In this document: positions 271 through 37,085 of the stretch, piece by piece
Layout of the letters: each line of letters starts with the position of its first letter
How positions within the stretch are numbered: the first letter of the stretch is position 1
From: Eledone cirrhosa
Lineage: Eukaryota
Assembly: GCA_964016885.1 (NCBI GenBank)
Contig: OZ024740.1
Span: forward strand, 405,418,001 to 405,482,000
DNA length: 64,000 nt
Direction: 5' to 3'
Translations under genes and position numbers: made by a program
The notes under the pieces: generated by a model
Databases searched by the model: none
The model's input: the letters and a program-made list of their open reading frames with translations, nothing else
Told to the model about the DNA's origin: nothing

Positions 271-345
271 GTGATTTTGTATATCATGGTTTGAAAATAT
301 GTATGTATATGTTACAGGGTTTACCATATAACATATACTATATAT

Positions 346-565: not shown

Positions 566-589
566 ATATAATGAGTGATGATTGTAGAG

Positions 590-900: not shown

Positions 901-1019
901 CTTGCAACTCTAACTCCTCCTTTAGCAAGGAAGATAACCTTAACAAACTGCTTCTTGTCATACAGTCACTCCAATACATAGAATTTCTATGAAAGCCATT
1001 ATAATAGACTACCACTTAC

Positions 1020-1099
1020 CTGTATATCAGATTTGATTGAAAACTTTTGGCCGTCGCATGATCGAAGAAACTCTGATGGCTGCCAACATTTCTGATTAT
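1020..1099 (-). CDS. Kinase subdomains VIII-IX exon ((D)NQKCWQPSEFLRSCDGQKFSIKSDIQ)
   Basis: Phase 1-0 exon, ttccag|...CAG|gtaagt. Confidence 0.9.
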
Positions 1100-1820
1100 C
1101 TGGAATGAATAATAAAATACAATCTATAAATTGTGATATAAACAATAATTTGTTTTTCTATATGTTAGAAAGTGGGAATGTTTCAAGTGAGAGGTGTTAA
1201 AAGTTTCAACCAATTCCCTTGAAATACTCAATAATATTGTGTCTTTGTCACTCACATCAATCAATTCTCTTGTAGATATCAAGAGTCTATGGGAATGCAA
1301 CACCCTATAGAAAGCTTGTTACTACTATAAATGGTTTCAAAATAAGTATGTATACATGTGTGTGTGTGTGCATATGAATATATGTATATGTGTGTGCATA
1401 TGTATATATATATATAATATGCATATATATATGTGTGCATATGTATATACATATATATGTGTGTGTTTACACATATATGTATGCATATGTATACATGTAT
1501 GCATGTATTGACTACTCTACAATTGTAGCCATTACTCAGAAATTTATGCCAGTTTGTAACACATTTGTTCACAACATTTGTAAGGTGGCATGTATCTTAA
1601 ACTTTCTTTCTATAGACATGTCTATGTTTGTTTACATTCAGCCCAGTAGGCTTTCATTTTGCTGTTTTAGTTTGCATTGTATAACTTATTCTTATACTGG
1701 TATTTAAATACGATACGTTCTTTTAATTATTTATTAAATTGGATTGCTGAGTTAAAATGTCGTATTTCTCAGTGGTGTACAGTTGACATTTTTTTGCTCT
1801 GCTTATGTCTGTTGCTACTG

Positions 1821-1851
<31 letters not shown>

Positions 1852-4800
1852 ACCATTGATGTTTTTGTTAGTGTTTTTGATATTGTTTATAAATAGCTTC
1901 AAGCAACTCAACTTGAGCAAACCTCTGGCATATTGGTAGCCAATTGAATAGGTGTTTAATATCCCAAAATTCAACAAAACTAAATGTTGTACAGTGTTAT
2001 CAAAGAACATGTTATATATGTCATTATATGGTATTTCATTGAGTGGTTATCAGCATTACAACTGAGTAGGTAGGGCAAATTACTTAACAGAATCTCAATT
2101 TATCACAGTCTACTTTGATACCTTTCTGAACTACACAATTGGAGCATATTGGTAATCATCATCATCATCGCCATTTAATGTCCATTTTTCCTGTTGTGAG
2201 CAATGCTAGATCAGGTAACAATGTCTTGCCCATACAGAACTGATTCTGGCTTGGTTTCTACAGCTTCATGCCCTTTCTAACCCCAACCTCATTTACAGTG
2301 AGTACTGGGTGCTTTTTATCATGATGCCTACACGACCACTTTACAGTGTGGACTGGGTATTTTAAAACTCTGAATTATATTTTTTCAGACATTTTTTCAG
2401 ACATTTTTTCAGACATTTTTTCACGCATTTTTTCAGACATTTTTTCACGCTCAGAGTTGCTGAAGCATGGAACAAACTGCCTGCGTCAATTGTTAGCTGC
2501 CGAGACACTGCATCCTTTAAGACACTCATGCTTCCCGAAATACGCCAAAACTACACCTGATGTACCCCTTCCATACACATGCACACATGTGTGTATCATG
2601 GCTCGTGCACTGTTCATTTTACTGATGTTTGTGCATTGCCCTATGTACTGTACATGCACTTTTTTGATGAGTTGTGGTGCACCTGGGCACTGTACACAAT
2701 ATTTCATTATTGTTATTGTTATTATATCATGACTCATACACTGTTCATTTTCCTGACATTTGTACATTATTCTATGTACTATACATGCACCTTTGATGAG
2801 TTGTAGTGCACCTGAGCACTGTACACAATAATTTCATTATTATTATTATATAATAAGGGTCCAGTGTATAAACCCACTGAAAAGATAGATAGAGATGATG
2901 AGAGAATATGTAATCAAATACTTTTAGTTAACTGGTTCTGTGACCAACATTTAATAAATGTTTCCTGGAGAAGTGTTCTGGTGAAACTTACCAGACATCA
3001 TATAATTACAGTTTTGACATTCAGGTCCATGTATCCATGAAGAGTGGAAACCATAATTACTCAGAAGAAGTTTCCCATATACGGTTATGAGAATATTTTT
3101 GGGCTGAAATATAAATAAATGTTTACTTTTAACTTCTTATCATTTAAGAAAAAAAGAAAAACATTTGCAGGAGAAAAACAATAATAGAATAATTTATAAC
3201 ATAAATCACATTTGGTGGTGATGAGTAGTTTCTTTTTCATATGTCCTTGAAACCAATGGTACATCATGGCTTTGGAATTATTATTAAGCCTTTTTATGCC
3301 ATATTTCTAATGAAAGACACTGCTAATAGTTTTCAAATGATTTTGAAAATAATGAAGAATTTGAAGGAGTTTAGTAATATAACAAATTTTCTCATTATTA
3401 AGCTGGTGTTTGGAACATAAAAGTTCTTACATAGAATTATATTGACACAGTTTAGTATCATAGAATTAGGGATGATTTTGATGTGGTTTGGTACCAAAAG
3501 GGTTAAGCCTTTTGTTATTATATTACTACTGAAAGACACTAACTACTATGGTTTTTAAGTAATTTTGAAAATAATGAATCATTTGAAGGGATTTAGTAAT
3601 ATAACTAACTCTCTCATTGTTAAGCTACTTAACATTATTAAGCTACTGAACATAACAAAGGTTCGTACATTAAATTATAATTGAAGAATTTCAGATAAAT
3701 ATAAATACATTAAATTATTGTAGAATCAAGGACAATTTCAGGCTTAACAATAGAGGTTGGGTTATGGTAATGGGGATGTAACGGTAAAAGTACTGATTGA
3801 CTAAATAAGGAACATGGACATTTTAGCTCAATAAGACTTTCCATAACCCTTTCATTATCATATTTCTAATAAAAGACACTTTGTGTTCCAAGTAATTTTG
3901 AAAGTAATCAAGAATTTGGAAGAATTTAGTAATAACTTTCTCATTATTATGGTGTCTAAAACATGATGGAAGGCTTTTAGATAAATATCAACATTTTAAA
4001 ACAACCAGGAGCCATTTCTGACAGTTTGTTATAAACCAGATACATTATAGATGACCCCAGGCTTTACACTGGACATAATCCATCAAAATCTAGTAGCAAA
4101 AGTATTGAGTTAAAGAAAATTACACTGTTCCTTGTTTAGATTGAAAACATCGTTACTGATGATGAAAATGAAGAGAAATGATAGAGAAAGAAAAAGAGAG
4201 AAAGAAGACAATGCGAGAAAAAGAACATAAAAAAGAAAGAAAAAAAGAACAACAGCAACAGCTGCAACAACACTAATGACAATAACAGCAGCTGCAACAG
4301 TAACAGTATCAACAACATTAGCTGTAGTATGACCATAATATCTTCTGCAATGGTGATTACCTCAAGTCGTCCATGTACAATATTATTGTCATGTAAATAT
4401 TTCAGGCTGCTAATCATGTGCCAGAAGAGGTAAGAGGCTGTATTGGAGTCAAATTTATTGGAGTACTTCTTCCAATCAATGTATTCTTTGAGGTTGCACT
4501 CACATAGGTTCATTGTGGCCAGGAAGAATTTCTGGCCAACCATCACAGACTGGAAATAAACAGAAATAACTATTGTATTAACTATATAGACTTTTTATCA
4601 GTCTGTCACACAAACGTCATGATCTTAAAATGTCTACTAATATAAATGCCTTGTGTATTTGTCCATCACACACTAGAAATGACTGAGGAAGGAAGGGATG
4701 ATTGCGTCAACTGAGGAAGGAAGGGGTGTCTAAGCAGCGTCTAACATTCGCTACACCTTTGTGTATATATATGTATAGTGAATTGGCTACACACATTGGT

Positions 4801-7800: not shown

Positions 7801-10800
7801 CAACATAAAAGGGGCAAGGTAGATGTAGTTAGTATTTTTTAACTTAAGGCCAGCTCTAACTGAGTAGATTATAATTTAAGGTGTTCCAGCTTTTAGCATC
7901 CTATCTTTATCCAAGATTATATTATGTAATGGTGTGTGATTTGAGGGAGATTTGGCTGCTATTTCTAACTAGTAAGGCAACCATGTAGAGGCTCCATCAC
8001 TGATGGGTGTACAATTGAAAATAGTAGTTTGTTGATGGCTGTGTTGCAAATATCATGTGTATTTAATAAGGCTAAATTTTCACTTGAAATTTCTCCCTTC
8101 TAGTGACAGGACTCTCATTAATGTATAGATGATATGTTAGATACATAGAATTTAAGGAAGATGTCAGGAGCTCATTACAGACTGAAGATGGTAGCCATTA
8201 TTTATTAACAGATTAACCTGAGTAGACTGTCATGGAATTTCAGCCACACTAGCATCATAATTTTACCATCTCAGAATTCTCTGTGATCCACAAAATTCTA
8301 TAGATTGAAGTCCAAAAAATATAACTTCTGCTCATCCACTTTTCTATGAATTATGTAACATTAAAAACTCCCTTGATTAGAAGATTCATTTGAAAAATGT
8401 AAGTTATTGTTTTTAAATCTGTTCTTTCATGGTTGTATGGGTTGGTTGAAAGTCAGGGTTTATTCCAGTGACAAGACTCCACCTTGAGCAAGATGCCAGT
8501 TCATTGCATGGCTAACTTCCAGCTACTATTACTGCAGGTACTCATGCTCAATTTAATGTTGGTCAAGTTCACTTGACCAACATTAAATGGAATACTTTAC
8601 TCAAGGGCACAATATGCCATCCAGTCTGGGAAATGAACCATGACCATATGCACATGAATCCAACACCCTAACCACTTGGTCATGTGATTTTGGTGTCTTA
8701 GAAATGAAAGGTCTATAATTTTTTTACAAATAAAATCTTACTTTATAGTTCACCACAAACCTGGAATCCAGGCTTGCTTGTGAAAGTTTCCTGAGGGCCC
8801 CACATACAACAGGACATTCATTTGCTCGATACAACTTGACAGCCAGCTCAGTTCCATCAGACAAAAGTCCCACAACAACAAAATGGTTACCCCTGAAGTA
8901 ATATAGCAGTGAGAAAATAATTATTTATTAAATTTCTCTGAATAAATGTCATTCAACTTGTACCACATGAGAAAACTGGGCAATGACAAAACAAACAAAA
9001 TATGAAATATAGAATAGTTTTTAATTATTGAAATCAATTTTATAGTTATATTTAATCATGTCAAAACACTAGAAAATCATTTACTCAATGAACAAACAAG
9101 TAATTACAACAAAGTCTATGAAAACAATAAAGCAAAACCAGAAATAATAGTAAAATCTGAAAACGGAAAAATATTTAGTGTTTAACATTTATTTTGATAG
9201 CCTAGTGTGAGGAGGGAACTGAAAAAATCAGTCCATTACATCAATCATTTGAGCAACAAAATATCTTTTAAAAACATTATTTATGGTAGTTATACCCATG
9301 CATACATGCGTGCGTGTGTGTGTGTGACAGCTCACACCTATGCAGGTTTAGCTGGCCTCCTCCAAGGTATATCTCGTTGGAGGTGTCTTGGGTAATTTAA
9401 TGATAGGGACCCCAGTCCTATCGTCAATATCCATGCCAACTTAAAGAATGCCACAGTGCTGAAATATGCAGATGACATCAAGCTGTACCTTGAGATAAAA
9501 AGGACAGATCCTCTATGCTATAAATCTTTCCTGCAATCAGACCTGGACACAATGCAGCAATGGATTACAGACTGGCAACTCAAGCTGACTGCGAACAATT
9601 GTACCGTCATACATTTTGAGAGGAAAAACTCAGTTTTCACATACTCTATCCACAACACCAATCTCAAGAAGTCTTCTTGTGAACATGGCCTAGGCATTAT
9701 TGTCAACAGCGATTTGTGTTGGACAAAGCACATCTTTAAAATTGTCAAGAAGGCCAAAGATGTCTTAGCATCACTCAGTAAGACCTTTGTTAGCCACTCT
9801 CCAGCTATCTATTTAAAGCTGTATATAGTTATGGTGCATCCACACTTAGAATGTGCATCACCAGTCTGGAAGGAGAAAGTTAATTATATCAACCCCAATA
9901 CTTAACTGGTACTTTATTTTATCACCCATGGAATCATTAAGTTGAATTTGGTTGCATTTCAACTTAGAATGTAGAAAGTCATAACTATATACCACCAATC
10001 ATTTTGTCCAATGCTCTACTGATTCTGCCAATCACTACCCTTAGCCTATCTATAATAACAACCAAAACAGCACCACAGATGCATTCACCACTTCTCCTTT
10101 TGTTAATATTTCTGTCAAGGTGTCAAGTAAATCTGTCACTAAATACTTTGTCCATTTCCTCCTCCACAAAACCATAACTCCCTGGATCTCTTTCTTTGTT
10201 CACCTTTTCTCTCTAGATCTCAAATTGAAGCAGAACATCAGCCAAATTCACCTCAACCGTTTGGGTGAGCCTGGAAAAATTCAGACACCATGCTTCCTCG
10301 ACTAAATACATTTTAAAAATGCATCTTAGACATAAATATAGATGCCCCTTATATAAAGCCATGTGTATATTTACAAATTTAAGATGCAAAATAACTTCTT
10401 TTTTTTTCTTCAGTTTAGTCAAGGTTTCTGAGACTGAGAGAAAGATATCCTCAAACCAGAGACTCATTCCAAATGCTTGCAACAGAGTGGACTTCACGAA
10501 AGGTACTTAAATGCCATGGGGGTTAAACTGAACACTGGATTACATCTACCAACCTAGTAGACCACAGCAGTATTTGAACTCAGAATACAAAGAGCCAGAA
10601 CAAATACTACAAAGCATCTCATCCAATGCTCTAACAATTCCACCACTCCATCACCTTGAACAGGTACTTTATTTTATCAATCCCAAAAGAATGAAAGGTG
10701 ATGTTGATATTGGTGGGATTTGAACTCAGAACACTAAAACAAATTCTATAAGGCATTTTGTCCTATACTTTAACAACTCTGCCAATTCTCCACCTTATGG

Positions 10801-13800
10801 TTTGTATGTAAATATTTCTGCAGATTTTAGAAACATTGCAATATAATAGTCAATGATTTGTTTTTTATTTCTGGATTATAAATAGTATTTTAGTATTAAA
10901 CACAGTTAATATGATGCTTCAATGACTATCGTCCATTTTCCATGCTAGCATACCTTCAGTATCTTTCTTACACTATATCTATTTTTATATGCCAATACAT
11001 CAATCAACTAAACAGCAGATATGATATATATAGAGATTCCAACAACTTTCTTCTGGCATGGTTATAAGTACCACTCTTTTTTTCCAGTCTAAATAAAATA
11101 AAAGATAAAACTTGTGCGAAATAATCATCATTTAATTCCATTCTTCCATGCTGGCATGAGTTGGACAGACACATGAAATCAGTATTTTATTGGAGTCCCA
11201 TTACATCACCATGTATTCAGTGACAGGAGGTAGGATTTGAACTCAGAATGCTCAGAGCCAGAATAAATGCCACAAACAGATACAAACGCTCTAATAATTT
11301 TGGTAATCTGCAACCCTGGACTGGTTCTCTATCAACTCTGAAAGGTAAAGTTGACTTTTGTGGGATTTGAACTTAGAGCACAGAAAACTGTATCAGATAC
11401 TACAAATCATTTAATCCAATGCTCTAATGACTGCCAATTCATCCCCTATATTGATACTCTAGTAATTATCCATGAAATGAGATTGATACCTATTTTCAGC
11501 AGAGCTGATTGAAGCAAGCAGATTAGTTTTGTTTTGTCTAAGAAAACTAAGCAATTTCATAGCTAGTACACTCCTAAATAATTTACTTAAGTATTACAAA
11601 AATATTATGTCCATTGGTTACCTTACATTGATGTTGTAGTTTCTGATATAAAGTGGTAAAATAACATCTTCAACATAACACAGGTTTCTAGGTGGGAGCC
11701 GTAGTAGATGATTCACATGCCTTTGCCATCGTACAGACTTCTGGTGATTTCCAAACTGACTGAAAGACTTCTTAATATCACTGAATATTGTTGGCTGTTT
11801 TAAAGATGATGGAATATTTAATTTTGCTTTTAGAGTATTATTTTTATTGGCTTCTTTCACTGATGACTTTGCTAAGTGGTAACTAATACGATATCCTGTG
11901 GATACATTTGAAGAGAATATTTCTGGAAAATCCGACATGAGGCTGTCTTTTTCTTTCTGACTGAAATATGTCATGTAGTAAAATGCATTATGGTTATAGA
12001 CCAAATCTCTTGTGACAGAATTTTGACAAAGCTGTTGCAAATACTGACGCATCCACATTAATTGTATATCTCTGAAGGCAGGGCTGCTTCTTACAGAGGA
12101 GAGATTAAGGCAGGTTGGATCTTTACTGAATCTAGCCATATGATACCATCTGGTCTCTGTTTTCTTCAAATAATTTTCCTTGTTATAATCTGGGTATTGT
12201 TTTGTAGTAGTTAAAGAAGATTTTTTCATGATTTTTCCAACAGTCTCAGATACATTTACTGTTTTTTGATTATGCTTTTCATCAATTTTTCGTTGAATTG
12301 GGAGTAAAAGGTCTTGGAAGAAATGTGAATTCACTGACTGTGCCCTCTCTCTAAGATTAAAATCTTTTGAAAGAGAATTATTAGTAAAATCTTCCTTTAC
12401 TGATTTAATTTTAAAGTTTTCTTTATTATTATGATGGTTATATTCCATCTGTAAATAATTTTCTTTGTTGGCTGACATATCTTGGGATTTTATTACTGAA
12501 TTTATAGACTCATGGTTTCTTGAACTGTTAAAACATTTCTGTGTACTTTGTACGGCTGTGTAATTTGAAGCTGGTTCTACATCTGGTATAATATTTACAT
12601 TTACATTTTGTGTGACACCTAAATCTTGTGTGACACCTAAATCTTGTGTGACACATAAATCTTGTGTAACACCTAAATCTTGCATAACACCTAAATCTTG
12701 CGTAACACCTAAATCTTGTGTAACACCTACATTTTGTGTGACACCTAAATCTTGTGTAACACCTAAATCTTGAGTAACACCTACATTTTGTGTGACACCT
12801 ACATTTTGTGTGACACCTACATTTTGTGTGACACCTACATTTTGTGTGACACCTAAATCTTGTGTAACACCTACACTTTGTGTGACACCTAAATCTTGTG
12901 TGACACCTAAATCTTGTGTAACACCTAAATCTTGTGTAACATCTAAATCTGATGTATCATTTAAATCTGGTATATCATTTAAATCTGATGTATCATTTAA
13001 ATCTGATGTATCATTTAAATCTGATGTATCATCTGAATCTGGAAAGCTATTTACATCTGGTATAATACCTACATCTGATGTAACATCTACACAGGGTGGA
13101 ACATCTACATTTGTTGCATTATTTACATCTGGTATAATATCTTCATGTGGTGTATTATCTAAATCTGGTGCAACATTTACATCTGATGAAGTATGGATGA
13201 CTGGTGTATGTTTTTTCTCTGGAAAAACTTGTGAAACAGAGTCATGTTGTTTTGTTGGTATTGTAGTTGGTGGAATTTGCTCAGTAGTTGCAACTTTCAT
13301 TACATCAGGCCCATTCTTTTGGACACCATTTTCAGTATGCAAAGATTTCTTATCAATTTTGGTTGGTTTCCAATCTTTCTCCGATTCAAAATGTATGGAA
13401 GGCATAAAGAATGGTAAACCTACATTAGATTCTTTACTTGGATTAGAAATATGAGTATCTCCTACTTGAATCTCTGGTTTTGTTTCCACTGATCCATGAT
13501 TGTTGTCAACCAAATTATCTTCACTTTTGCAATAAGATTCAATCTTAGCTATCAGTAATTCTTCAAGGCTTATTTTTCCCTTTTTATGTTGAGAATCCAA
13601 AACTGAGCTATATGTACAATTAACGTTCTGTTTTGAAACTAAATTTGATTTGTTTTTCTTGAGAAAATATGGATAAGGAGATGGTGTAGAATTTATAGAA
13701 CTTCTTCTTCCACTCTATAAAAGAATAAACATAAAAATTTATCAAAATAACCATTCATAGAAAATTACAAAATTCACTTGAAATGAAGTCAATACTAATG

Positions 13801-16800
13801 AATAATGATAATAATGGTTTCTGATTTAGGCAGAAGACCAGCAATTACACCAGTGTATTACTGGTACTTTATTTTATCGACCTCGTAAGGATGAAAGGCA
13901 AAGTTAACCTCAGCGCGATTTGAACTCAGACCATAAAGGGCCGTAACTCTTTGCTGTAAAGCATGGCGTCAGACCCTCTACCGATACTGCCAATCCATTT
14001 AGGCAGAAGGCCAACAATTTTTTGGAGGGGAAAGTCAATTAAATTGACCCCAGTGCATTACTGGTACTTTATTTTATCAACACCATAAGGACGAAAGGCA
14101 AACACCATAAGGACGAAAGCAAACACCATAAGGACGAAAGGCAAACACCATAAGGACGAAAGCAAACACCATAAGGACGAAAGGCAAACCCTGACGGAAT
14201 TTGAAATCAGAATGTAAAGGGACGTAACCATATGCCACAAAGCATGTTGGCCAATGCTCTTCCAATACTGCCAATCCACTGCCCTTTTAATAACCATGAT
14301 GATAATGATGATGATGATTTAGGCACAAGTCTAGCAATTTAGGGGGAAGGAAAAGTTGATTATATTGACCCCGGTACTTGACTGGTACTTTGTTTTATCG
14401 ACCTTGAAAGGATGAAAAGCAAAACTGACCTCAGTAAGATTTAAACTCAGAAGGTAAAGAACTGGAACAAATATCACAATTCTATTTGTTTGACATTCAG
14501 GCACAAGGTCACCAGTTTGGAGAAAGGCCAAAGTGGATTATATCAACCTTTGTATTTGACTAGTACTCTATTTTATTGATCCAAAAAGAACAAAAGGTAA
14601 AATTGACCATGGCAGGATTTGAACTCAGAATGCAAAGGGCCAGAATAAATACTGCAATAGTATTTTATCCAACACAATACCAATTCTGCTAATTCAATAA
14701 TAAATTACCAACATACAGTATTTCCACTTTATTAGATTTTTTTTCTTTTTTTTTTTTTGCTAAGTCACTGGCCTTTTCCAAGACAGGTGAGATTGTTACT
14801 GTTGATGTTCTGCTGAAACTGTAACATGAAAACACCTGCAGGAATGACAAGTAAGTTAGACATTTCAGAAAGCCAACATTCTGGGTAAGAAGGACTGGAC
14901 ATTTTAGTTAGTGTGGAGGCCTGAATGAGGGTGGGCCTAATATGTGTGATGAGAGGAGGGGAGATATGTGTGGTGCTCCTTCATCCTTTGATTAACCTAT
15001 ATTTTTTTCTCTTTTTTTTTAATATGCTGTTGTGGCTTGTAATGGTTATGAACAAAGCTCTTTCATCTTTAGATCAACTTTTAAAAAAAGGATACCACAT
15101 AAATAACAACTTATGGGAAACATAAGGGTTAGAAACAGTATCATATAACTAAAAACATGTATTCAGGAACGTGTGTATCTGGTTTAGAATTGGTACACTG
15201 TGTCCTTATATGCTGTAAGCATCAAAAAGGGTTGGTGTCAGGTCGGGCAACCAACTATAAAACATTGCCTCAAAAGTCCTGTCCAAACCATACCAGCATG
15301 GAAAAGTTGGTGTAGAAATGATGATGATTATGATTATGATTCTGTGTTTGGAAATAATTCACAAGAAGTTACACTTACCACTGGTTTTACTTTGTACTTT
15401 TCAAGAGATTCTAATGGAGAAGGGAGTGGGGCTGCCTGAAATTTTTGTTTGGGTAAATCTTGAGGTATATTTGTGGAATAAGTTGAACAAAGAACATTTT
15501 TCTTTGAAAGAATTTTATCGCTTTCTACAGGCATGTTGCGATTTTCTAAAATAGTATTTACAGCAGTTTTATTATTTTGAGCCCTAAAATTAGACCCAAA
15601 AGTATTGTCTACTTTAACTGCACTTTCATTTACATATTTTGTTGTTGGATAACTTGAAGATTTTTTAAAAGTATTATTATTGTCTATTTTCTCAGTAATT
15701 TTTACTTCTGTTTTCATCCCATATTTGGTTCGATTTTCATATTTACAGGTAGATTTCTTGGCAACCACCGTTGTCCATTGGGCACCTAAATCATCATCTA
15801 TCGAATAGCAATCTTTATTTATATTTGTATTTATATTTGTATTATGTTCCATCTCATTATGAGATTTAGAAAGCAAATCTTCAGAGGCAGTTTTCATATT
15901 TTCAATTGGTGTATCACAAATAGAGTCTAAGCTACTTTCATTTGGAGATAAAACTATGTCCTGTGGGTTTTTTGATGTGTTCATTAGTAACATTTTTTTG
16001 CATGTCTTTCTGTTCAATTCAGTTGGTGATAAAAGTGACTGGTGACATGCATTGTCAACTCTGAGTTTTGCTGAATGAGTATCGTGCATTTCTTGTTCTA
16101 CATCTTTAAAAATGCAATCTGAAGAACCTTTATTTTTATTATTAGCCTGGACATCATTGTTGGTCTCAGAGAGAGGATTTCCAAAAATCTGTCGAGATTG
16201 TTGTGGATGGTGTTTCCTCTTTAGCTGCTTTTTCACGATTTTCTTCTCTTTCTTTTTGTTCAGTCGTATTTCATCACCCAAAAGCTGTGCAATAGTCTCT
16301 TGTTGTTTTTCATAGGCTATTGTATTGAAGTATTCTATAAAATTGGTCCATATCTAGGGGAAAAAAATCACAAAATTTCAAAAATTAATTTGGTTAAGTT
16401 TATGATATGTGAAAGAAAATATTCTGGTTTTAGAATAGGTACACAACATACCTGCATGTCATAAAAAGTGCCTAAAAGGGTTGGCATGTGGAAGGGCATC
16501 CAGCTGTAAAAATATGTCTCCAAATATCCCATCCAACCCAATGCCAGCATGGAAAAATTAAGGTTAAAATGATAATTGTCTCTACTTTTGGCACAAGGCC
16601 AGCAATTACCCAGTACATTACTGGTACTTTATTTTATCGACCCCGTAAGGATGAAAGGCAAAGTTAACCTCGGCGGGATTTGAACTCAGAATGATAAGGG
16701 CCGTAACTCTATGCGTCAAAGCATGGCATCCAACCCTCTACCGATACTGCCAATCCACCGCCTTAAGGTTAAAATGATAATGAGGGAATATCTAGGTTGA

Positions 16801-25800: not shown

Positions 25801-28800
25801 TTGCACAAAGCTCTGTTAGTGTGTGTGTGTGAATGTATGAGTGTGTAAAAGGGGGGAAGGGAGATGGTGTAAAAACTATGCCCTCTGTGAGTGTATGTGT
25901 TTCCAAAGGAGAATGAACTGGTGAGTAAATGATTATGATCATCATTGTCATCATCATCGTCATCATCATCACCATCATTATCTAAATCATCATCATCACC
26001 ATCATTATCTAAATCATCATCATCATCACCATCATTATCTAAATCATCATCATCACCATCATTATCTAAATCATCATCATCATCACCATCAAAATCATCA
26101 TCATCATCATCATCTTAAGACTATGTTAAGGGACAGTATGGCATTGGGAACATAGGATGGTAAAATATGGCAATGGGGAGATAGTGTGGAAAAGTACAGC
26201 ACTTCGGAGCTAGGGTGCCGTACTATGGCACTACGGAGCTAGGGTGGCACACTATGGAACTGGGAAGCTTCAGTAATACAATATGGAAATATGGAGCAAG
26301 GGTGACCTCCCTACGACAATGAAGAGATAGTGTGGGAAAATATGGCACTTTGAAGCTAGAGTGCCGCCCTATGGCACTGTAGAGCTAGGGTGTCGCACTA
26401 TGGCACTGGGGAGCTTCAGTGACACATTATGAAAATATGGAGCTAGGGTGAACCCCTATTGCAATGGGGAGATAGTGTAAGAAAGTATGGCTAGGTTGCC
26501 ACAATTGTCAATAGGGAGCTAGTGTGACCCCATATGGCAATGGGGAGATAGGGTGGCAAAATATAACACTTCAGAGCTAGCAAATAAATAATCATCAATT
26601 GTGTCAGCAAAAATAACAACAACCTACACCATTACTACCTCTATGGTATATGGCTGAAGAATGGTCTCTGTGTCATGGTTGGAGAGAGAGAGAGTGAAAG
26701 AGAGGAGAGAGAGAGTGAGAGAGAATGAAAGGAATAGGGCATAAAGCATATGATGAGATGGGAGAGGTAAAGTTGAAGAACATAAAATAAAATAAAAACT
26801 ACTTTTAAAATCATAAATAATGGACATATTTTAAATAGGATCTACTTAAAGAATTAGAGATATTACCTTAAGAAAGAAATCTGGTCCACCAGCATGGAGA
26901 AATTGCAGAACAAAACGATAGGTAATCTCTAGTTGACAAGACACAAAATTAAATTTAAGACAACAGTTGACACATAAGAGGCTGATAAAAGTCACTGTTT
27001 CACATTTACTGACAAACATTTGTAGACTACTTAGGACATTAGCTATCACTTTTAGTTTGTAATATACTTTCATAATATATGCATCTTTCTCAACCAGTTG
27101 AGCTGTGGCCATCAAACACAGAAGAATCCAGCCATAATATTCAATTTTCTCAGCTTCACTGCAATCCTTTGGAGCACGAATTTTCTCCAAAAGGTTCTGA
27201 AAAACAAAAATATCAGTGTAAACAACATAATATGAAATGACTTGGAGTGATGAGTGTGTAAAAACTTTTCATAAAAGTGTAGGAATCTCAAATATGGAAA
27301 TAGCTGTAAAACAGCCAGCTGCTATGAATAACAAGGAGTCAGGTTATAACTTTAAACCTCTTATGAACGGTAGAATGCTCAGAGAAGAGAGACTAATGAG
27401 GTTTGCATTGATATTCTCCTTTAAATATGAATAGGTCATTTTGGGTGGGTTGCTGTTATTAAACCAAAACATTTCAGGTGATTTGGGGCAAGTTGATACT
27501 GAAAAGATTAAATGCTTACAAGTAAACACAAACATTTCTGTTCTTAATATTCCCTACTGAAATAAGGCAGGTAGGTGGGGGCTCCTATATTTCAAGTATG
27601 ATACTTTACAAACACTAAAATACATAAAATTGTTACCTTCACATACTGCCTACACTCATTAGCAGTAAGTTTATTAAGCATTTGCTGAGCAGTGCACCAC
27701 ATTAATGACTGGTAGGCATGGCAGATGGGTGTTTCTTCATACTGAAAATAAATACATATCGAAGTTCAATGGCAATGGTGATGATGACAACAAGAATAAT
27801 AAAAATACAAGGAGAGAGAGGAGGAGAAAGTGAAGGTGATGAAGGAAGATAAAGACGTACATATAAGAACTGATACCTTTATAGCTATGACTACTACATA
27901 AGTTGGTCTCTTCCCTTCAAAATTTTAACATTGCTGCCACCACCACTGTCACACTCTCTTTTACATATATTCCAGCATGACAGACTCTTTACATGACAGG
28001 AACACCAGCTTTAATTGTCATATCTTTTACGTTCAGCTTAGAACTTAGTGATAAACTTTCTTGGGGCTTCTAATTTATAGTATTCACTTCTGAATACTCT
28101 TAATTTACATTATTCATTTCCTTTCCTACTGTCTATTTTTCATTCTCATCACATCATCATTATCATAACCATCACTATTTCACGTATATTTTCCATACTT
28201 GCGTAGATTAGACAGGTTGTCATATTCTGAAGCTATACAAGTCAGATAGCTGTGTCTTGCTTATACATTCTATTTTGTCATGGTTTCTACAGCTGGATAC
28301 CCTTTCTAATGCCAACTACTTCACAACATATACTGAGTCCGTTTTCATGTGGCACCACCACTACTATTTGACAGAGTGAGCTGGATGCTTCTTTTTTTTT
28401 TTTTCATGATACCAGCACTACAATTTTACAGGATGGGCTGGGTACATTTAATGTATCATATTAGCATTGGTCCTCTGCAACTAAAAAACAAATATGTTTG
28501 GATCATATCTAGTTGGACAGATGAGAGACTCCCAGCTGAAACTCTCAACTGTTTATGTCCCATCATCAGCAGTATTTTAACTCATCTTTATGGCTGAAAC
28601 TTTTAACTACCAAATTTGAAGAAAGGATAAATTCAAAGTGACAAATTGGTAGAGTTGTTCAAGCATTGGATTAAATACCCTGGTTCAAATCCTGCTGCAG
28701 TAAGCTTTTCCTTTTATCCTTTCAGGGTTGATAAATAAAGTACCAATCCAGGGGTAGTGGATTGGTGGAATCATTAAAGAGTCACATGGGATGTTTTCCA

Positions 28801-31800
28801 GTATCTGTTCTGGCTCTGCATGTCCTGAGTTTAAATCCCACCTCATGTCACTGGAAAAACTGATATTTCTGCTAGAAGTTATGCCCAACAGATAGTGTAC
28901 CTCTTCTCCAATAGACTAGCCTTTCATGAGAAGAAATTGACTTGAAAATGCAATCACTAATATTCTCAAATATCAATTGAAATGTTTCCTATCCTGCTAT
29001 AAACAGAGATAACGATTAGAAAAGAGTGCTTGACTGGTACTTATCTTATCAACGCCAGTAGTTAAAACTCAAATGTAAAAAGACATAACAAAATACAATA
29101 AAGACCTGTTAGTAATAGCAACCAAATCTTTTACAAATCACATCTTGTTCATATTAAATATGAGGACACATTAAGTAATATAATCCTAGACACATTGCAA
29201 TAAAATAATGTAGTCTTGTATATTAGAAAGATAGATGGTCATAGTTAGAAGGCTTTCATCAAAATTCTATTCAATCAGAGCTGGCTTGCAGCTAATTAAC
29301 AGCCATGTTTCCAGCTCCATGTCATGGAAACACAAACTTTCCTATTTCATTTACACTCCATGTCATGGATACACAAACTTTCCTATTTCATTTACACTCT
29401 TCATATATTTCACCATTCACCTTCTTACACTGATACAAAAACATACACTAAATAATTATTGTATATAAAAGCACATCACCGATAAAACACTTTTTCCCTT
29501 AACCTTCTTGCTCCCATGCAAAATTGTACACTAAATAATTTCTTTATATATATGAAAACACACATCGCTACCAAAATGCTATCTTTAATATAGAATGTTA
29601 GTACTAGTTTTATTTTAATTAATTTATTTTTCTTTTCCCTCTTGTTATTCTTCTTTTAATTTATTAAATTTAGTTTTATAACTATTCAAAATAAGGACAG
29701 TTCAAATAAGAAGCACTTCTTTAATATCATACATTTTTATCTTTGATTTCCTTCTCATACTTTGAAAAAGCCATTTCTTGTTTTCAAGTATTTCACATAA
29801 AAGATATAAATTATATCCACAAAACAAATACTTTAAACTTTTTAAATAAGTACTTCAGTTTCAATTCTTATCTACATACACTTTTCATGAGTTGTAGTGC
29901 ACCTGAGCACTGTACACAATATTTTCATTATTATCATTATTATCTAATTCAACTTCCTTAATAAGAATACAATTTCCGTTCACCTTTAGACCTCTGATAA
30001 TACTAATCAGTATGAGATTTAATTTGAAAAATATTCACACCTTATCTGTAGTCAATATATTACTTCCAGCCAAAATAAGTTGTTCAACAATTCTGTTATG
30101 ACCTTGAGAAGCAGCCAGCATTAGAGGGGTTTTTCCTTCCTTCAACAAAAACAAACAAAAAAATGCTTTTAATAAATAATTATTTAATAACAATTTACCC
30201 TTTTGATACTTGCCTGTCTGAAACTGCCTATAATCTTATAATATAAAACCTCTAATTGTAAAGAGCTCATACTTAAATTCAAACCTTTTGTTATAATTTG
30301 AAGAAACTTTTTCATTAAGATATGTTGTTAACACTATTTTAATAATGAAAATTTCAATTATTTTACAAAATCCTTCAAATTATTTTTATTATTTTAAAAA
30401 TTTATTGTATCGTATGGATAGCATATTTCATTCAAAATATGGTAATAAAAAAGTTAAGAGATATTATCATAATTTTACTTACACTTTCCATGTCAAAATT
30501 TGAGTCAGTTCTTGTTCAGAGTTATTGCCTACCTTTATGTCATTTTGGCAAGGTTTCAATAACTAGATGCCTTCCCTATTGCCAACACAGAGGTTATCAT
30601 GTTCTCAACAAGACTAGGGTCCTGTCTAACTTATGATGTCACCGTTCAATCGTCAACCACTTTACACAGTGTACTAAGTACATTTTAGTGCTGTGCCAGC
30701 ATTAGGGCAGTTTTCATGTTCTTGACAAGATTAAATAATTTTTTTCAAATTCTTGATTATTTGAAATAAATAGGCAGTCTTTCATAAGAAATAGAGTAAC
30801 AAGAGGTTTAATGTTTACATTGAAAACTTTTTAGGCTGTTATTCCTAAATCATTTTAAAATTAAGTAGTACTTACAGTGTCACATGCATTCACTGAAGCA
30901 CCATTATTAATCAATAACAAGACACATTTCTCCCACTGCACTTCAACTGCCAAATGAAGAAGTGTTTTGCCTTGCTGAAAGATCATATTCATACACAAAA
31001 AAATCAAAAGAAAGTAAAACAGCTTTATTAAACAAATCACAAATATTAACACAGAGGTTCTCATGGCCCCGTAATACCCTCGGGGCCCCAACCCTATTTA
31101 TAGAGAGACCTGCCTACACGCAAATTGTAAATACCCTTGGGGCCCCAATCCTATTTATAGAGAGACCTGCCTACACGCAAATTGTAAATACCCTTGGGGC
31201 CCCAATCCTATTTATAGAGAGACCTGCCTACACGCAAATTGTAAATACCCTTGGGGCCCCAATCCTATTTATAGAGAGACCTGCCTACACGCAAATTGTA
31301 AATACCCTCGGGGCCCCAACCCTATTTATAGAGAGACCTGCCTACACGCAAATTGTAAATACCCTTGGGGCCCCAATCCTATTTATAGAGAGACCTGCCT
31401 ACACGCAAATTGTAAATACCCTCGGGGCCCCAACCCTATTTATAGAGAGACCTGCCTACACGCAAATTGTAAATACCCTCGGGGCCCCAACCCTATTTAT
31501 AGAGAGACCTGCCTACACGCAAATTGTAAATACCCTCGGGGCCCCAACCCTATTTATAGAGAGACCTGCCTACATGCAAATTGTAAATCTCCTCGGGGCC
31601 CCAACCCTATTTATAGAGAGACCTGCCTACATGCAAATTGTAAATCTCCTTATAATATATAACCAGCAATTTCTCTGTCTGTCTGTCTGACAGTGGAAAC
31701 ACGTGCGCACGTGGTTGCTATCTCTCTCTCTCTCCAGCTATCCCTCTCTTTTAGTCTGTCTGTTTCTCTCACTCTCACTCTTTCTCTTTGTAACACACTA

Positions 31801-32418: not shown

Positions 32419-32449
<31 letters not shown>

Positions 32450-35400
32450 GAAATATATGGGCATTTCTCTGTCTGTCTGTCTGTCCTTCCTTAAAACTCA
32501 AATGTAGGTGCTACAGAAATATTACCTTCCCCTTCCTTTCTCCACTTTGGTACTACCAAGAGAAACACTGTCGCTATAGAAACATTATCTTCCCCTCTCC
32601 ACTGACTTTGGTCACTGAGGCCGAGGGAATCGCTGGTTGCTATAGAGACACCTTGCACAAGCCAGAAGTAACCAGTTCAAGGCGGTTCTGACTTGACACC
32701 ATGCCAAGTCTACTTATAATATATAATGGGCATTTCTCTGTTTGTTTGTCTGTCTGTCCGTCTGTAAAAAATGCCAAGGAAACAAATAGACGCGGTTTCA
32801 AATCTCTATGCTTTTCAAATTCATTACATTAATCTTTATTTATACGTTTCACTTTACGAGTGTTTCGACTTACGAGTGTTTCGGCTTATCATTATATATA
32901 AACGTTTCTATTTCCATCGTTTTATCGTAAACGTTTATATATTTCCATCATTTTATCGTAAACGTTTATATATTTCCATCGTTTTATCGTAAACGCTTAT
33001 ATATTTCCATCGTTATATCATAACGTTTATATTTCCGTCACTAATCTCTTTTTCTCCTTTTTCGTTTTAACATATATTTATTTCAAAGATTTCACCGTAT
33101 AGATAACATATATATTTATACATGCATAAAAGACACACCGAGAGACGGTGAACATGTGGTGCCGAAAACATTTCTCATCCAAATCTCAACAATATCAGTA
33201 TATACACTAGATTTGCTAGCAGAAAACCGCCCAGAGGGTGGTTTTCTGCTAGTCTATATATATAAAACTGAGGATGTCTGTGTGTGTGTGAGTTCGAATC
33301 CCTAAAACTCGAGAAACACCCAACCGACTCTTTTCAATCTTTACACATGTAATACTTATGTTTCAGGGAGTGTTCTGAGCAAAGAAAATTTCAAATTTTC
33401 AATGCCCTAGGGACCGCATTAGGCGATTTAGCGATCTCTATCTATAATTCTTAGTCTTTCTCTTTTTAGATAGATACATACATATAACGTCGCGCCCTTA
33501 TAATATCTGTCTGTATGTCTGATGTCTGCATTACGTCAGCAATACTAAGCTTAGCTAAGCTTAGCTAAGGCGGTTATATATTTCACACAACACTAAAAAT
33601 GAAAGCCGGTAACTATGTATTAGTCAGTCTTTTCTTCATACCGTGAGCAAAGAAAATTCAACTTTTAGTGGAGAGAGTTAAATAAAGTCGACCCTGTTGC
33701 GATTCAAAAATCAGGTTTGCAGGTTATATATTTCACACAACACTAAAAATTAAAGGCGGTAAAGAAAAACATCGCTGTAATAGCTTCAGTTTGCTTACTT
33801 ACGTGCCTTTACGAGAACAAAAGTTACTATTTTACCGCTTAGTATTGTAGAGAAGCACCAAACCGACTGTTTTCAAACTTTACACATGTAATACTTATGT
33901 TTCAGGGAGTGTTCTGAGCAAAACAAATTTCAAATTTTCAATGCCCTAGGGACCGCATTAGGCGATTTAGTGATCTCTCTCTATAATTCTTAGTCTTTCT
34001 CTTTTTAGATAGATACATATAACGTTGCGCCCTTATAATATCTGTCCGTATGTCTGGCTGTCTGCATTACGTCACTTCCCTGAGGATGTCTGTGTGTGTG
34101 TTTGAGTTTGAATCCCTAAAACTCGAGAAGTACCCACCTGATTTTTTTCAAACTTTACATGTGTATTACTTATGTTTCAGGGAGTGTTATGCACATAAAA
34201 TTAACTTTTTTTTTATCTCTTAGGGCCTGCATTAGGTGAAAAACTGCGTTTTTAAAGATTTTTAGGGGTTTTTTGAGGCGTTACATTAGACCGATTTCCT
34301 TGAAATTGTAACTATGTATTAGTCAGTCTCTTCTTCATACCGTAAGCAAAGAAAATCCAACTTTCTTATGGCCTAGGGCCTGCATTAAGTGAAAAACTTC
34401 ATTTTTTCAGCTTCTTAGGGCTTTTTGGAGGTGTTACATCTAGCCGATTTTCCCGAAATTTAAAGGCATATTATGCACATAAAAAATATTCATTTTCTTG
34501 ATCCCCTAGGGCCCGCATTAGGTGAAAACCTGCATTTTTCCTGCTTCATCGAGGAAAATCTTAAAGATTATCCAGCCATCAGAGTATTCGGTTAATTTTC
34601 TTTACATATTGTCCAGGCATGCAGTTTTTCCCCGATTAGGTCTGTTGGCGGCCCGCGTTCCAAAATACCTAATCCCGTGCAACGCCAGGTACCGCTGCTA
34701 GTATATAATAAATAAAATCATTAATTTATATATAATAAATACTATAATATATACTATGTATAAATAAATATTACATATTTTTTTATTTTTCTATATTTAT
34801 ATTTAATATGTATCATTTTATATTTAATATACTATTATATCATCTCTACTACCCCCTTAGGCCCCAGCACCCCACTGGACTTTTTGAATGCCACCTAGGG
34901 GCGGTAGCACCCACTTTGAGAACCTCTGTATTAACACAAAGTATTAAGTATACAATAGATTAAAAGTTACAAGAATGAAGCTTATAGATGAGGTGTACAG
35001 TTACATAAACCTATACAACTCATGCTGGATTGGAAGAAATTGATGTTAAAATAGATGAAGATGATGGTTGTGGTGATGACAATAATAAAAGAAGTGAGAA
35101 AATCAATGACATTAATGATGATATAGTAAGATTGTTGTTATGAAGAGAAAACCAATTACAAATCCTAGCAACAAAACCAAGACTTATCTCAATGAAATAT
35201 GTCACTAAAATAATTAAATAAAAAGGTTTATCTCACAAGATCTGTTTCAAGTAAACTTGTGCTTTCATTTCTTTGATGCCAGATGATATGAAAAATATTT
35301 GAGTCCTTAACCATTATAGCTTTCATTAGAGCAGTTTTTCCATACTGTGGATGGAAAAATAATAGTGTTTAAATTTAAAATTCATAAATGTCTTTAAGTG

Positions 35401-37085
35401 CTTTTCAATTGATACCAAATGAAGAGTCTGAAAGACATACAAGGCAAACAAAACAAAATGTATATGAAAATACATAATAAAGATGAAGGTGTATGTTTCT
35501 CATTATCATTACATATCTGTAATGTCAATTAAATACATCCACCAGTTTCTCTGATGCTGAGGTTACTGTAACATCACAGTTAAAAAGATCACAGCTTAAA
35601 ATACTCACAGTGAGACTCTCTAAGGCTTCCTTCAATCATAGCTAATCATGGGTTTACACCTGGATAGTTCTTCAAAATGCAAGCCTGGTCATGTTGTTTT
35701 GTATGCAAGTCTCTCTTCTCCACATCACCGATGTTGTCCAAAGGAAAGGTAAGAGCCAATACAGTTTGGAACCAGTGATGTCAATGGTAAGCTCAGAATG
35801 TAAAGGGCCATAAGAGATAGTACAAGTTATTAAATCCAATGCTCTAACAATTCTGCCAATCCACCAACCAGGATTGATACTTTATAAACTATGAAAGAAT
35901 GAGAGGCAAAGGTGACCACTAGCAGGAGACAAAATGCTGTTTGTTGACTTCAATTCATCAATCTATGGTCCTACACTCCCAAGATAGTTTTGTAGCTTCA
36001 ACCCCCGAGCTTTAGAATTCCATTATGCAATTAAAACATTGCTTTTTATACAGAGTTGAATCTAATAATTAAGCAGGTCATGGCTAGAGTTAATATCCCC
36101 TCCAGCCATATTGTGCAGGATTTATGAGAAAAGGCCAGATGGTCTTACCCTTTGCCCTTAGATTAGAGGTAGAGATATATGCTTCATTTGGTACATCACA
36201 ATTATCAACTCTTTTTGTTGCTCCTTCGCATGTCCTGGATGTGGTGGCAAAGATGATCACTACATCCATAGCTGAACAGATTAAAATTTTAAAATACCAA
36301 CAAACTATTCTTTTCAATTGAGTCAGTGATGTAAGCTGAACTGCTTGCCTTACTGAATAGCATCACCTTATCAGGTAATACCCATGTGGGTGCTTAGTTA
36401 CTCCAGCACCATAACCTCACTATCTTGCCTAAAAAAATTATTAGAGGCTAAATCTGGCAGCCTTTGCAGTTACACGTAATAGAGTGCTTGTTTCCTCTGG
36501 ACCTTTTTATTTTTCCTCATACTGCTTTTGTTTTCTTTCCTCTGATTTCTTTCTGCAAACTGTTAATCTTTTAAAAATGTATGTAAATAAAAGTCAAATT
36601 TAACTCCTATTGAAACTAGTATTTTCTGACCAACAGACATTAGAATAATTATTTCAATATCATACTTACATCATCTCTGATAGAAATATTAGCCCCATTA
36701 CTAATCAAGCACTTGACCAGATCAAAACGTTTGTTTGTAATGGCTTCCACCAAAGCTGTTGCACCATCCTATAGAAAAAGATAAATCCTAACAGATATTA
36801 AATCAAAACAACTCGGCTGTTGCCATTGATGTAAAATAGACAAAAGTAGCTGAATATTGCATGTATACTATGGATAGCTATTTCTCAACTTTAACAACAA
36901 TAGTAACTGTTATTTGAAATATTGTCTTTGGTGTTGATAAGTAACTTGACATAAGTGATAGATAAAAACACCAAGTTTATATTCATAAAATAGCATGATT
37001 TTACGACACATCATATTGGCTTTCATAACCAAATACTTACCTTCTTTAAATACAGAAATAGTAAGGGACTGATTTCATTGTCCAT
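1020..37085 (-). CDS. Multi-exon gene (3' end outside window): ankyrin repeats + long linker + RNase L/IRE1-like pseudokinase
   Basis: 15 exons with AG/GT (one possibly GC) boundaries and compatible phases; TPL/TALH-type ankyrin motifs and kinase motifs DGTELAVK, PKNILI, CWQPSE, KSDIQ. Extra exons between 16.4 and 21.7 kb cannot be excluded. Confidence 0.85.
2376..2850 (+). mobile_element. CR1-like LINE 3' end with (att)n tail and 12-bp tandem repeat at its 5' side
   Basis: RVAEAWNKLPASIVSCRDTASFK; same element inverted at 62950-63290. Confidence 0.7.
2992..3103 (-). CDS. Kinase subdomains VIb-VII exon (PKNILITVYGKLLLSNYGF...)
   Basis: Phase 0-1 exon, ttcag|CCC...G|gtaagt. Confidence 0.9.
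3283..4040. mobile_element. Tandem degenerate piggyBac-like MITE copies
   Basis: ttaa(g/c)cctttt...aaagggttaa ends, shared ctttctcattattaagct core; related pieces near 30190-30455 and 40310-40570. Confidence 0.45.
4361..4549 (-). CDS. Kinase subdomains V-VIb exon (...LCECNLKEYI...LKYLHDNNIVHGRLE)
   Basis: 189-nt phase 0-0 exon; ORF 4136..4546. Confidence 0.92.
5650..5709. repeat. 19-bp perfect inverted repeat (MITE remnant)
   Basis: gccatccagatatcatgtg ... cacatgatatctggatggc. Confidence 0.7.
6198..7223. mobile_element. Non-autonomous DNA transposon with ~170-bp TIRs and GC-rich interior
   Basis: 6198-~6370 is a near-perfect reverse complement of ~7050-7223; subterminal ggacaagaaa x3. Confidence 0.85.
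8742..8892 (-). CDS. Kinase N-lobe exon (GNHFVVVGLLSDGTELAVKLYRANEC...FVVNYK)
   Basis: Phase 2-0 exon, ttcag|...|gtaag; subdomain II AVK lysine. Confidence 0.9.
9430..9870 (+). mobile_element. CR1-like LINE RT fragment
   Basis: KYADDIKLY, LQSDLD...W...WQLKL in ORF 9456..9905. Confidence 0.85.
11622..13714 (-). CDS. ~2.1-kb exon: disordered linker, hexapeptide repeats, pre-kinase segment
   Basis: 660-aa ORF 11618..13600 extended to acceptor ttttatag; donor AG|gtaacc (phase 2) matches the next exon. Confidence 0.88.
12598..13190 (-). repeat. In-frame 18-bp coding tandem repeat: ~19x VTQ(D/N)(L/V)G plus DTSDLN-like and degenerate units
   Basis: Repeated acacctaaatcttgtgtg / acacctacattttgtgtg units. 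Confidence 0.95.
13812..14285 (-). mobile_element. Two adjacent Nin-like SINEs, the second with an internal 22/23-bp tandem expansion
   Basis: SINE consensus; aacaccataaggacgaaa(g)gca x5 at ~14078-14188. Confidence 0.8.
14717..14835 (-). CDS. Small lysine-rich linker exon (VFSCYSFSRT...KKKKEKKSNKVEI)
   Basis: cctgcag acceptor, open frame, CT|gtatgt donor; may be alternative or non-exonic. Confidence 0.5.
15379..16353 (-). CDS. Large exon: helical/basic segment then low-complexity N/K/S/T-rich linker
   Basis: 975-nt phase 0-0 exon, cccctag|ATATGG...GTG|gtaagt; ORF 15334..16281. Confidence 0.85.
16577..16762 (-). mobile_element. Full-length young SINE with 19-bp TSD
   Basis: ttaaggttaaaatgataat at 16558-16576 and 16763-16781; tRNA-like head with gagttcaaatccc B-box. 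Confidence 0.9.
21695..21925 (-). CDS. Exon AAAFHQKDG...SQSIHKK
   Basis: Strong pyrimidine-rich acceptor; best donor AAG|GCAAGT (GC), alternative GT donor at 21671; ORF 21659..22000. Confidence 0.7.
22562..22770 (+). mobile_element. Nin-like tRNA SINE
   Basis: Matches the local SINE consensus. Confidence 0.8.
23110..23400. repeat. ~43-bp minisatellite
   Basis: actatatcccaccagcccggtattctagtcccaacaatatttc, about 6-7 copies. Confidence 0.9.
23680..25055 (-). mobile_element. RTE-clade LINE 3' portion (RT + PHD-like Cys/His cluster + 3' tail with (atg)n)
   Basis: GVHQGSVLSPLLF, LLYDDDL, CSVC...CPKC..WVH..C...C..C in ORF 24177..25166. Confidence 0.88.
25935..26115. repeat. (CAT)n compound microsatellite
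   Basis: Repeated catcaccatcattatctaaat units. Confidence 0.9.
26135..26580. repeat. Degenerate ~29-bp tandem repeat
   Basis: Recurrent ggagctagggtg...tatggcaatgg. Confidence 0.75.
26867..27196 (-). CDS. Exon encoding hydrophobic/helical region (NLLEKIRAPK...AGGPDFFLK)
   Basis: 330-nt phase 0-0 exon, tttttcag|...AAG|gtaat; ORF 26846..27190. Confidence 0.8.
27637..27741 (-). CDS. Ankyrin repeat 5 / capping exon (YEETPICHAYQSLMWCTAQQMLNKLTANECRQYVK)
   Basis: 105-nt phase 0-0 exon, ttttcag|...AAG|gtaac; ETP..HA ankyrin-like start. Confidence 0.8.
30041..30139 (-). CDS. Ankyrin repeat exon 4 (EGKTPLMLAASQGHNRIVEQLILAGSNILTTDK)
   Basis: 99-nt phase 0-0 exon; canonical GxTPLxxAAxxGH ankyrin motif. 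Confidence 0.92.
30876..30974 (-). CDS. Ankyrin repeat exon 3 (QGKTLLHLAVEVQWEKCVLLLINNGASVNACDT)
   Basis: 99-nt phase 0-0 exon, ttcag|...|gtaagt; within ORF 30861..31091. Confidence 0.92.
31071..31650. repeat. 60-bp minisatellite (~9.6 copies)
   Basis: aataccctcggggccccaaccctatttatagagagacctgcctacacgcaaattgtaa, near-identical copies. Confidence 0.95.
31944..32135 (+). mobile_element. Nin-like tRNA SINE
   Basis: ggcggtagatcggcag head, B-box, gcctttcatcct core. Confidence 0.85.
32709..33252 (+). mobile_element. Non-autonomous Helitron-like element
   Basis: 5' TC-tacttataatatataa, (ctgt)n, 3' hairpin gcagaaaaccgccc/gggtggttttctgc ending in CTAG. Confidence 0.7.
33253..34701 (+). mobile_element. 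Non-autonomous Helitron with internal duplications
   Basis: 5' TCTATATATATAAAA, 3' cccgtgcaacgccaggta...CTAG|T; internal repeats 33270-33540, 33860-34075, 34080-34240. Confidence 0.75.
35237..35344 (-). CDS. Ankyrin repeat exon 2 (YGKTALMKAIMVKDSNIFHIIWHQRNESTSLLETDL)
   Basis: 108-nt phase 0-0 exon, ccacag|...|gtgaga; GKTAL motif. Confidence 0.85.
36670..36768 (-). CDS. Ankyrin repeat exon 1 (DGATALVEAITNKRFDLVKCLISNGANISIRDD)
   Basis: 99-nt phase 0-0 exon, ctatag|...|gtaagt, ankyrin consensus. Confidence 0.9.
37041..37085 (-). CDS. Putative first coding exon MDNEISPLLFLYLKK
   Basis: ATG with upstream in-frame TAA; ends in strong donor AAG|GTAAGT, phase 0 matching the next exon. Confidence 0.6.

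Follow-up and report, generated by a model that had tools for sequence, protein, structure and literature searches.

RNase L and IRE1 are the closest described systems to the gene considered here, and both join a kinase fold to a KEN ribonuclease domain. RNase L is a soluble protein with nine ankyrin repeats that abut its kinase, and its pseudokinase retains the catalytic Asp. Its 2-5A pocket is formed by ANK R2, R4 and R9 together with the kinase N-lobe (PMC5927464). In Ire1, H1061 and Y1043 are catalytic, R1056 and N1057 serve for the phosphate, and the H1061N change lowers cleavage at least 3x10^5-fold (PMC3149027); both the Arg and the His are reported to be necessary for KEN activity (PMC3710099). 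In the published model, RNase L is described as confined to jawed vertebrates, with ankyrins added shortly before their origin, and the several ankyrin-carrying proteins outside RNase L probably gained theirs independently (Chu et al., PMC10400998). Here, we describe a gene of the octopus Eledone cirrhosa in which ankyrin repeats, a pseudokinase and a KEN domain are combined. It was found in a stretch of 64,000 nt (GCA_964016885.1, OZ024740.1:405,418,001-405,482,000, forward strand; G000:C1:405418001-405482000), the whole of which is called the window below. A preliminary description, made from the letters of the window, had proposed an RNase L-like effector. The explanation that we favor, with moderate confidence, is an intact 20-exon gene of a protostome-wide ankyrin-pseudokinase-KEN family whose product is likely a soluble, non-cutting scaffold in octopus.

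The gene lies on the minus strand, from window position 61712 to 11 kb past the left edge, and its 20 exons comprise 1,871 codons with no internal stop. The exons were located by mapping Octopus orthologues onto the window and 100 kb leftward, and the splicing in E. cirrhosa rests on splice signals and these orthologues. All 19 acceptors are AG, 18 donors are GT and one is GC, and the exon phases give a single frame, in which 1,466 of the 1,871 residues are identical to O. bimaculoides XP_014775694 (isoform X1). Given these splice signals, the single 1,871-codon frame and the match to XP_014775694, the gene model is not a chance assembly. When the end of the large exon was searched against proteins (334 candidates), two matches were returned, both from Octopus, LOC106873009 of O. 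bimaculoides and an O. vulgaris model labelled IRE2; the same gene is present in O. bimaculoides and O. sinensis. The genome search for paralogues with exon 13 recovered the locus itself only (one match among six candidates), and with this single short query distant copies are possible. Isoforms P0013, P0014, P0015 and P0002 in the databases stop ahead of the kinase or inside it, or are missing most of KEN; they may reflect real alternative splicing or model error.

Much of the preliminary anatomy was borne out. The quoted motifs SVRWQRHV (11737), GLLSDGTELAVK (8870), LCECNL (4507), CWQPSE (1088) and KSDIQ (1034) all stand on the minus strand where they had been placed, but SVRWQRHV, read as part of the kinase, belongs in the model to a helix that precedes it. 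The five ankyrin exons (36768, 35344, 30974, 30139 and 27741; 99-108 bases each, phase 0) are real. The extent of the gene had been underestimated: exons 1 and 2, the latter another ankyrin-type repeat, were missed upstream, as were exons 16-20 beyond the edge. These last five encode the end of the C-lobe and a KEN domain without the catalytic Arg and His, at the side where both parts had been predicted. The joining of ankyrins, pseudokinase and KEN in one gene holds, with a single frame, no catalytic Asp and, on the orthologue P0001, a PF06479 score of 32.8 bits (cut-off 23.3).

In octopus, the catalytic residues are lost from both C-terminal domains. The kinase keeps its beta-3 Lys, and it has Ala at the alpha-C Glu, HGR for HRD and NYG for DFG; the catalytic-loop Asp is absent from all 32 family rows and the alpha-C Glu from 30 of 31. 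The KEN domain reads LVIFLYNTCILY where yeast IRE1 has DLLRALRNKYHHF, so that Tyr and Leu stand opposite R1056 and H1061, and Ile opposite Y1043; in all three octopus rows the R/N/H positions are Tyr, Asn and Leu (Y-N-T-C-I-L). With Tyr and Leu at the Arg and His positions, the proposal of a nuclease effector like RNase L is not supported. Since neither the octopus kinase nor its KEN has its catalytic residues, a scaffold is likely rather than a nuclease.

The state of the KEN site varies within the family. The RNxxxH motif was found in all control rows of IRE1 (10/10) and of multi-ankyrin proteins (8/8) and in 8 of 9 fish rows, and the His is missing from the annelid (1/1), the arachnids (4/4) and every insect-clade row with a residue there (9/9). 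In the bivalve/gastropod clade it is kept in 12 of 12 KEN-bearing rows (8 named), together with Asn and usually the upstream Tyr; Tyr replaces Arg in 11 of the 12 (the YNxxxH variant), and LVLFxYNCCLHF and an upstream RxFRQY are near-invariant across bivalves and gastropods. These rows speak for an atypical RNase that uses YNxxxH instead of RNxxxH, active in bivalves and gastropods and with residual activity in octopus, as do the KEN matches above the Pfam cut-off in all 7 of the proteins scanned from the mollusc and annelid clades. The absence of the His from every octopus row and the reported need for Arg (PMC3710099) make this explanation unlikely.

From the N-terminus, six ankyrin-type repeats are followed by a helical solenoid and a charged coil; about 800 residues of poor conservation then lead to an IRE1-type pseudokinase and KEN. 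On the orthologue P0001, Pfam recognized the ankyrins, the kinase (residues 1425-1631) and Ribonuc_2-5A. The N-terminal 436 residues of the orthologue were modelled with a predicted local distance difference test (pLDDT) value of 90 as six ankyrin-type helix pairs, one for each of exons 2-7, followed by a helical solenoid and a 54-residue helix. The C-terminal 433 residues (pLDDT 91) were modelled as a pre-kinase helix, a kinase fold and KEN. Over about model residues 33-433, this C-terminal model matched IRE1 at Z 31-36.5, RNase L at Z 29-31 and other kinases at no more than 26.7, in agreement with the earlier assignment to the IRE1/RNase L superfamily. The kinase-KEN unit is thus predicted to be IRE1-like in fold, with an ankyrin and helical solenoid at the front. 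Fold searches with the N-terminal model were dominated by generic ankyrins and barely probed the residues past 281. As a lead only, a feature atlas likened the helical region to ankyrin-armadillo proteins (0.92, 140/256 features).

No membrane segment was found: the gene model has no hydrophobic window above 1.8, as against two in each of four IRE1 controls. Likewise, no signal peptide or luminal sensor was found, nor any luminal Pfam family on the orthologue. Between residue 247, where exon 6 with repeat 5 ends, and the first kinase strand (1497) lie 1,250 residues, so the wide gap noted earlier is confirmed and breaks the geometry of RNase L. Identity to O. bimaculoides is 82-97% in the ankyrin and helical exons, 94-98% in the kinase exons and 85-96% in the KEN exons, as against 63-75% in the two linker exons and 28-47% in their central 300 residues. 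The dead kinase and KEN therefore remain under constraint, and the 85-96% identity of the KEN exons suggests that KEN is kept for a non-cutting role. The linker of about 800 residues is rich in N, S, V, T, K and D. It also contains a coding 18-base tandem repeat (window 12608-13185) with about 27 copies of a VTQDLG-like unit, which differs in sequence and length from the corresponding linker of other octopuses.

In the scaffold that we favor, the ankyrin-helical solenoid would bind a protein partner, loosely tethered by the long flexible linker, and the dead kinase-KEN unit might self-associate, as those of IRE1 and RNase L do, and bind RNA or a partner without cleaving it. Such a scaffold would have no need of 2-5A. 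Several points weigh against this proposal. We infer every mechanistic step beyond the anatomy, and the binding of RNA or of any partner by the octopus protein is argued by analogy. The fold likeness to IRE1 is not independent, because the alignment behind the model held IRE1-like rows. The His is retained in all 12 shelled-mollusc rows with a KEN, so not all of the family is dead, and judging from the residues the octopus KEN site could be altered rather than abolished.

The gene is not a novelty of octopuses or molluscs; it is a cephalopod gene of a protostome-wide family. In a full HMMER search (best 150 matches listed), 38 proteins scored E <1e-30, and the named top matches came from Solemya, a scallop cluster, Patella, Mytilus, Ostrea, Haliotis, Biomphalaria, Batillaria and the annelid Owenia; further members were found in two spiders, a scorpion, a tick, a cockroach, a bedbug, a sawfly and a beetle. 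The N-terminal halves of the protostome members can be aligned over the ankyrin, helical and coil regions of the octopus protein, and ankyrin and kinase Pfam matches were present in 18 of 19 family proteins scanned. The spacer from repeat 5 to the kinase measures 1,039-1,586 residues in molluscs and the annelid (n=10), 596-1,094 in arachnids (n=4) and 421-828 in the insect clade (n=8); with 421-1,586 residues across members, a long spacer is a family trait. The databases label family members 'uncharacterized' or, wrongly, IRE1/IRE2. No description of the family was found in the literature, although the figures and supplement of PMC10400998 may show some members as unnamed tips, and six gene identifiers of the family were not mentioned in the papers searched.

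For the phylogeny, 18 of 159 rows were dropped as short or unrelated, and a careful tree was calculated from 50 rows hand-picked from the remaining 141. Motif, tree and hydropathy, rather than names, served to label the IRE1 rows, names are lacking for five of the nine insect-clade rows, and all trees were made from rows other than RNase L sequences. In the careful tree, the 22 family rows form one clade (support 99/92), which nests with fish, lungfish and hemichordate kinase-KEN proteins in a soluble clade (99/94), and the 10 IRE1-type rows separate at 100/99; a fast tree of the 141 rows is concordant. The family profile scored IRE1 at 184-192 bits, RNase L at 136-138 and other kinases at no more than 95, scores that do not place the divergent RNase L. 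Within the IRE1/RNase L superfamily, the protostome family (from molluscs, an annelid, arachnids and insects) makes up a third branch, which is conserved.

The octopus branch is long (1.12 in the 50-row tree), which would suit a decaying relic, and some database isoforms (P0013-P0015) stop ahead of the kinase or KEN, as might be expected if two genes had been joined by annotation. Either reading is most improbable, given that the E. cirrhosa frame is unbroken and the fused layout recurs in 18 of 19 family proteins scanned. In addition, the scallop-cluster protein (1,765 residues) is encoded whole on contigs of 5.4-5.5 kb, as is P0030 (1,819 residues) on contigs of 5.6-5.9 kb; these contigs leave no room for introns and are therefore presumably mRNA assemblies, each a single mRNA.

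IRE1 is the nearest match to the kinase-KEN unit in both sequence and solved fold, and in mixed oligomers wild-type Ire1 is stimulated about tenfold by dead Ire1 H1061N (PMC3149027). On these grounds, the dead kinase-KEN unit might co-assemble with the animal's own IRE1 and tune its RNase output. Another KEN gene lies on contig C20, and its KEN-coding exon (G000:C20:27363782-27363943, L001) retains the His (RNHY...); this gene is probably the canonical IRE1 of E. cirrhosa. It was the only match in a PF06479 profile search of the genome, which missed the ankyrin-pseudokinase-KEN locus, whose KEN is spread over short exons. Regulation of IRE1 is nevertheless improbable, as identity to IRE1 structures is only 23-28%, the protein has no membrane anchor and the family lineage split from that of IRE1 very long ago.

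The octopus protein has the domain order of RNase L and is likewise soluble, and a true RNase L counterpart would be gated by 2-5A or a similar nucleotide messenger. A further likeness lies ahead of the kinase, where the family and the fish proteins share a W-x-x-x-S-x-R-W-x-x-x-L helix that was not seen upstream of the kinase in five IRE1 rows inspected. A 47-position profile of 12 family stretches, searched against 177,635 PDB sequences, gave nine matches at E <=10 and matched no IRE1 chain; the nine included residues 318-334 of pig RNase L (E = 1), which sit just before its kinase. This match counts only because RNase L had been named as the target beforehand, and the pre-kinase helix is probably common to RNase L and the family. 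A genome search with PF10421 (OAS) gave no match, but one with PF03281 (Mab-21), which is expected in any animal, was blank too, so the OAS search is too weak to be read. Oyster and limpet are listed with OAS genes and without RNase L (Hu et al., PMC6307210); a survey of Aplysia reports neither OAS nor RNase L (PMC9334734). An RNase L counterpart is nonetheless very unlikely. The octopus catalytic residues are lost, there are six repeats as against nine, and 1,250 residues separate repeat 5 from the N-lobe with which the 2-5A pocket must be built (PMC5927464). The ankyrin domain is no nearer to RNase L (Z 23.7) than to many other ankyrin proteins (19-25), and the jawed-vertebrate confinement and independent ankyrin gains reported by Chu et al. 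(PMC10400998) count against it as well.

The origin of the layout is a separate matter. It is conceivable, though doubtful, that one soluble ankyrin-kinase-KEN gene of the bilaterian ancestor gave rise to the protostome family, the fish and lungfish proteins and RNase L, that the YNxxxH form is a ligand-gated RNase in bivalves and gastropods, possibly the effector of molluscan OAS, and that octopods, arachnids and insects lost activity independently. If so, the layout would be older than RNase L and no de novo gain of ankyrins near the origin of jawed vertebrates would be needed. Against a shared ancestral fusion, the helical domains of fish and protostome proteins are unmatched, relatives bear other N-termini and the ankyrins are generic. 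Among the soluble kinase-KEN relatives P0098, P0100 and P0041, a GT4-conflict glycosyltransferase (hemichordate P0098) or ubiquitin domains are fused to the unit, which suggests repeated swapping of sensors. The fish/lungfish family (P0003, P0038, P0189-P0269) is large, mostly uncharacterized and expanded in teleosts, which are reported to be without RNase L (PMC10400998). A search with the lungfish KEN region gave 83 proteins, none of them named as tetrapod RNase L.

Table 1. Exons of the E. cirrhosa ankyrin-pseudokinase-KEN gene (window positions unless a G000:C1 coordinate is given; aa, amino acids).
Feature	Position	Strand	Remarks
Exon 1, start codon, basic N-terminal leader, aa 1-82	61467..61712	-	87% identity to O. 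bimaculoides P0010
Exon 2, ankyrin-type repeat 1, aa 83-112	39491..39580	-	
Exon 3, ankyrin repeat 2	36670..36768	-	
Exon 4, ankyrin repeat 3	35237..35344	-	
Exon 5, ankyrin repeat 4	30876..30974	-	
Exon 6, ankyrin repeat 5 (ends at residue 247)	30041..30139	-	
Exon 7, ankyrin-type repeat 6, running into helical domain	27637..27741	-	
Exon 8, helical solenoid part 1, aa 283-392	26867..27196	-	93% identity to P0010; helical in orthologue model
Exon 9, helical solenoid part 2, aa 393-469, GC donor	21695..21925	-	97% identity
Exon 10, long charged helix (about aa 470-516), then start of poorly conserved linker	15379..16353	-	
Exon 11, linker with in-frame 18-base tandem repeat (12608-13089), then conserved pre-kinase helix SVRWQRHV	11622..13714	-	
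Exon 12, pseudokinase N-lobe: ELAVK, without glycine loop or alpha-C Glu	8742..8892	-	
Exon 13, pseudokinase hinge to catalytic loop, HGRLE replaces HRDLK	4361..4549	-	
Exon 14, pseudokinase, NYG replaces DFG	2992..3103	-	absent from the motifs quoted in the preliminary description
Exon 15, pseudokinase, CWQPSE ... KSDIQ	1020..1099	-	
Intron 15, initial part, leaves window at left edge	1..1019	-	
Exons 16-18, outside window	G000:C1:405415600-405415407, 405414140-405414057, 405412172-405412097		
Exons 19-20, outside window, end TAA	G000:C1:405410433-405410318, 405407112-405406974		

The introns also hold remains of mobile elements. Fragments of reverse transcriptase (RT) of the long interspersed element (LINE) type lie at 24180-25172 (-), where a PHD-like finger is also borne, and at 9396-9902 (+). 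Intron 1 contains RT and GIY-YIG frames at 50586-51816 (-) and 47908-48519 (+), presumably as in Penelope-like elements, and an RT-RNase H fragment of a long terminal repeat (LTR) retrotransposon at 58429-58857 (+). An intronic 57-base tandem array at 31073-31645 consists of 10 copies, 97% alike, with two frames open.

Compared with the known systems, the kinase-KEN unit finds its best sequence and fold match in IRE1 (about 100 bits with the single sequence, 190 with the family profile, Z up to 36.5). The octopus protein lacks the signal peptide, luminal domain and membrane helix of IRE1 and belongs to a separate clade; moreover, the kinase of its family is dead and the RNase dead or variant. 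With RNase L it shares solubility, the order of ankyrins, pseudokinase and KEN, and the predicted fold (Z 29-31). In RNase L, however, nine repeats abut the kinase, whereas the octopus protein has six, followed by a helical solenoid, a coil and a long linker; the R-N-x-x-x-H of the RNase L KEN has lost its Arg and His in octopus, and the pseudokinase lesions differ, the octopus family being without the catalytic Asp. The fish and lungfish ankyrin-kinase-KEN proteins ('IRE1-like') resemble the family in their ankyrins, helical middle, pre-kinase motif, kinase and KEN and in belonging to the same soluble clade (99/94), but they have intact kinase motifs in 9 of 10 rows, RNxxxH in 8 of 9, many paralogues and a helical domain with no match to the protostome one (HHalign probability 0.85%). 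IRE1 and fish have RNxxxH, shelled molluscs have YNxxxH, and octopus and arthropods have no His, a natural active-site series that offers a direct test of cutting with Tyr for Arg and of the role of a dead KEN, and the protostome family is an obvious test of the published model for the origin of the RNase L ankyrins. The octopus gene is IRE1/RNase L-like in structure, and its repeat geometry and catalytic residues set it outside RNase L.

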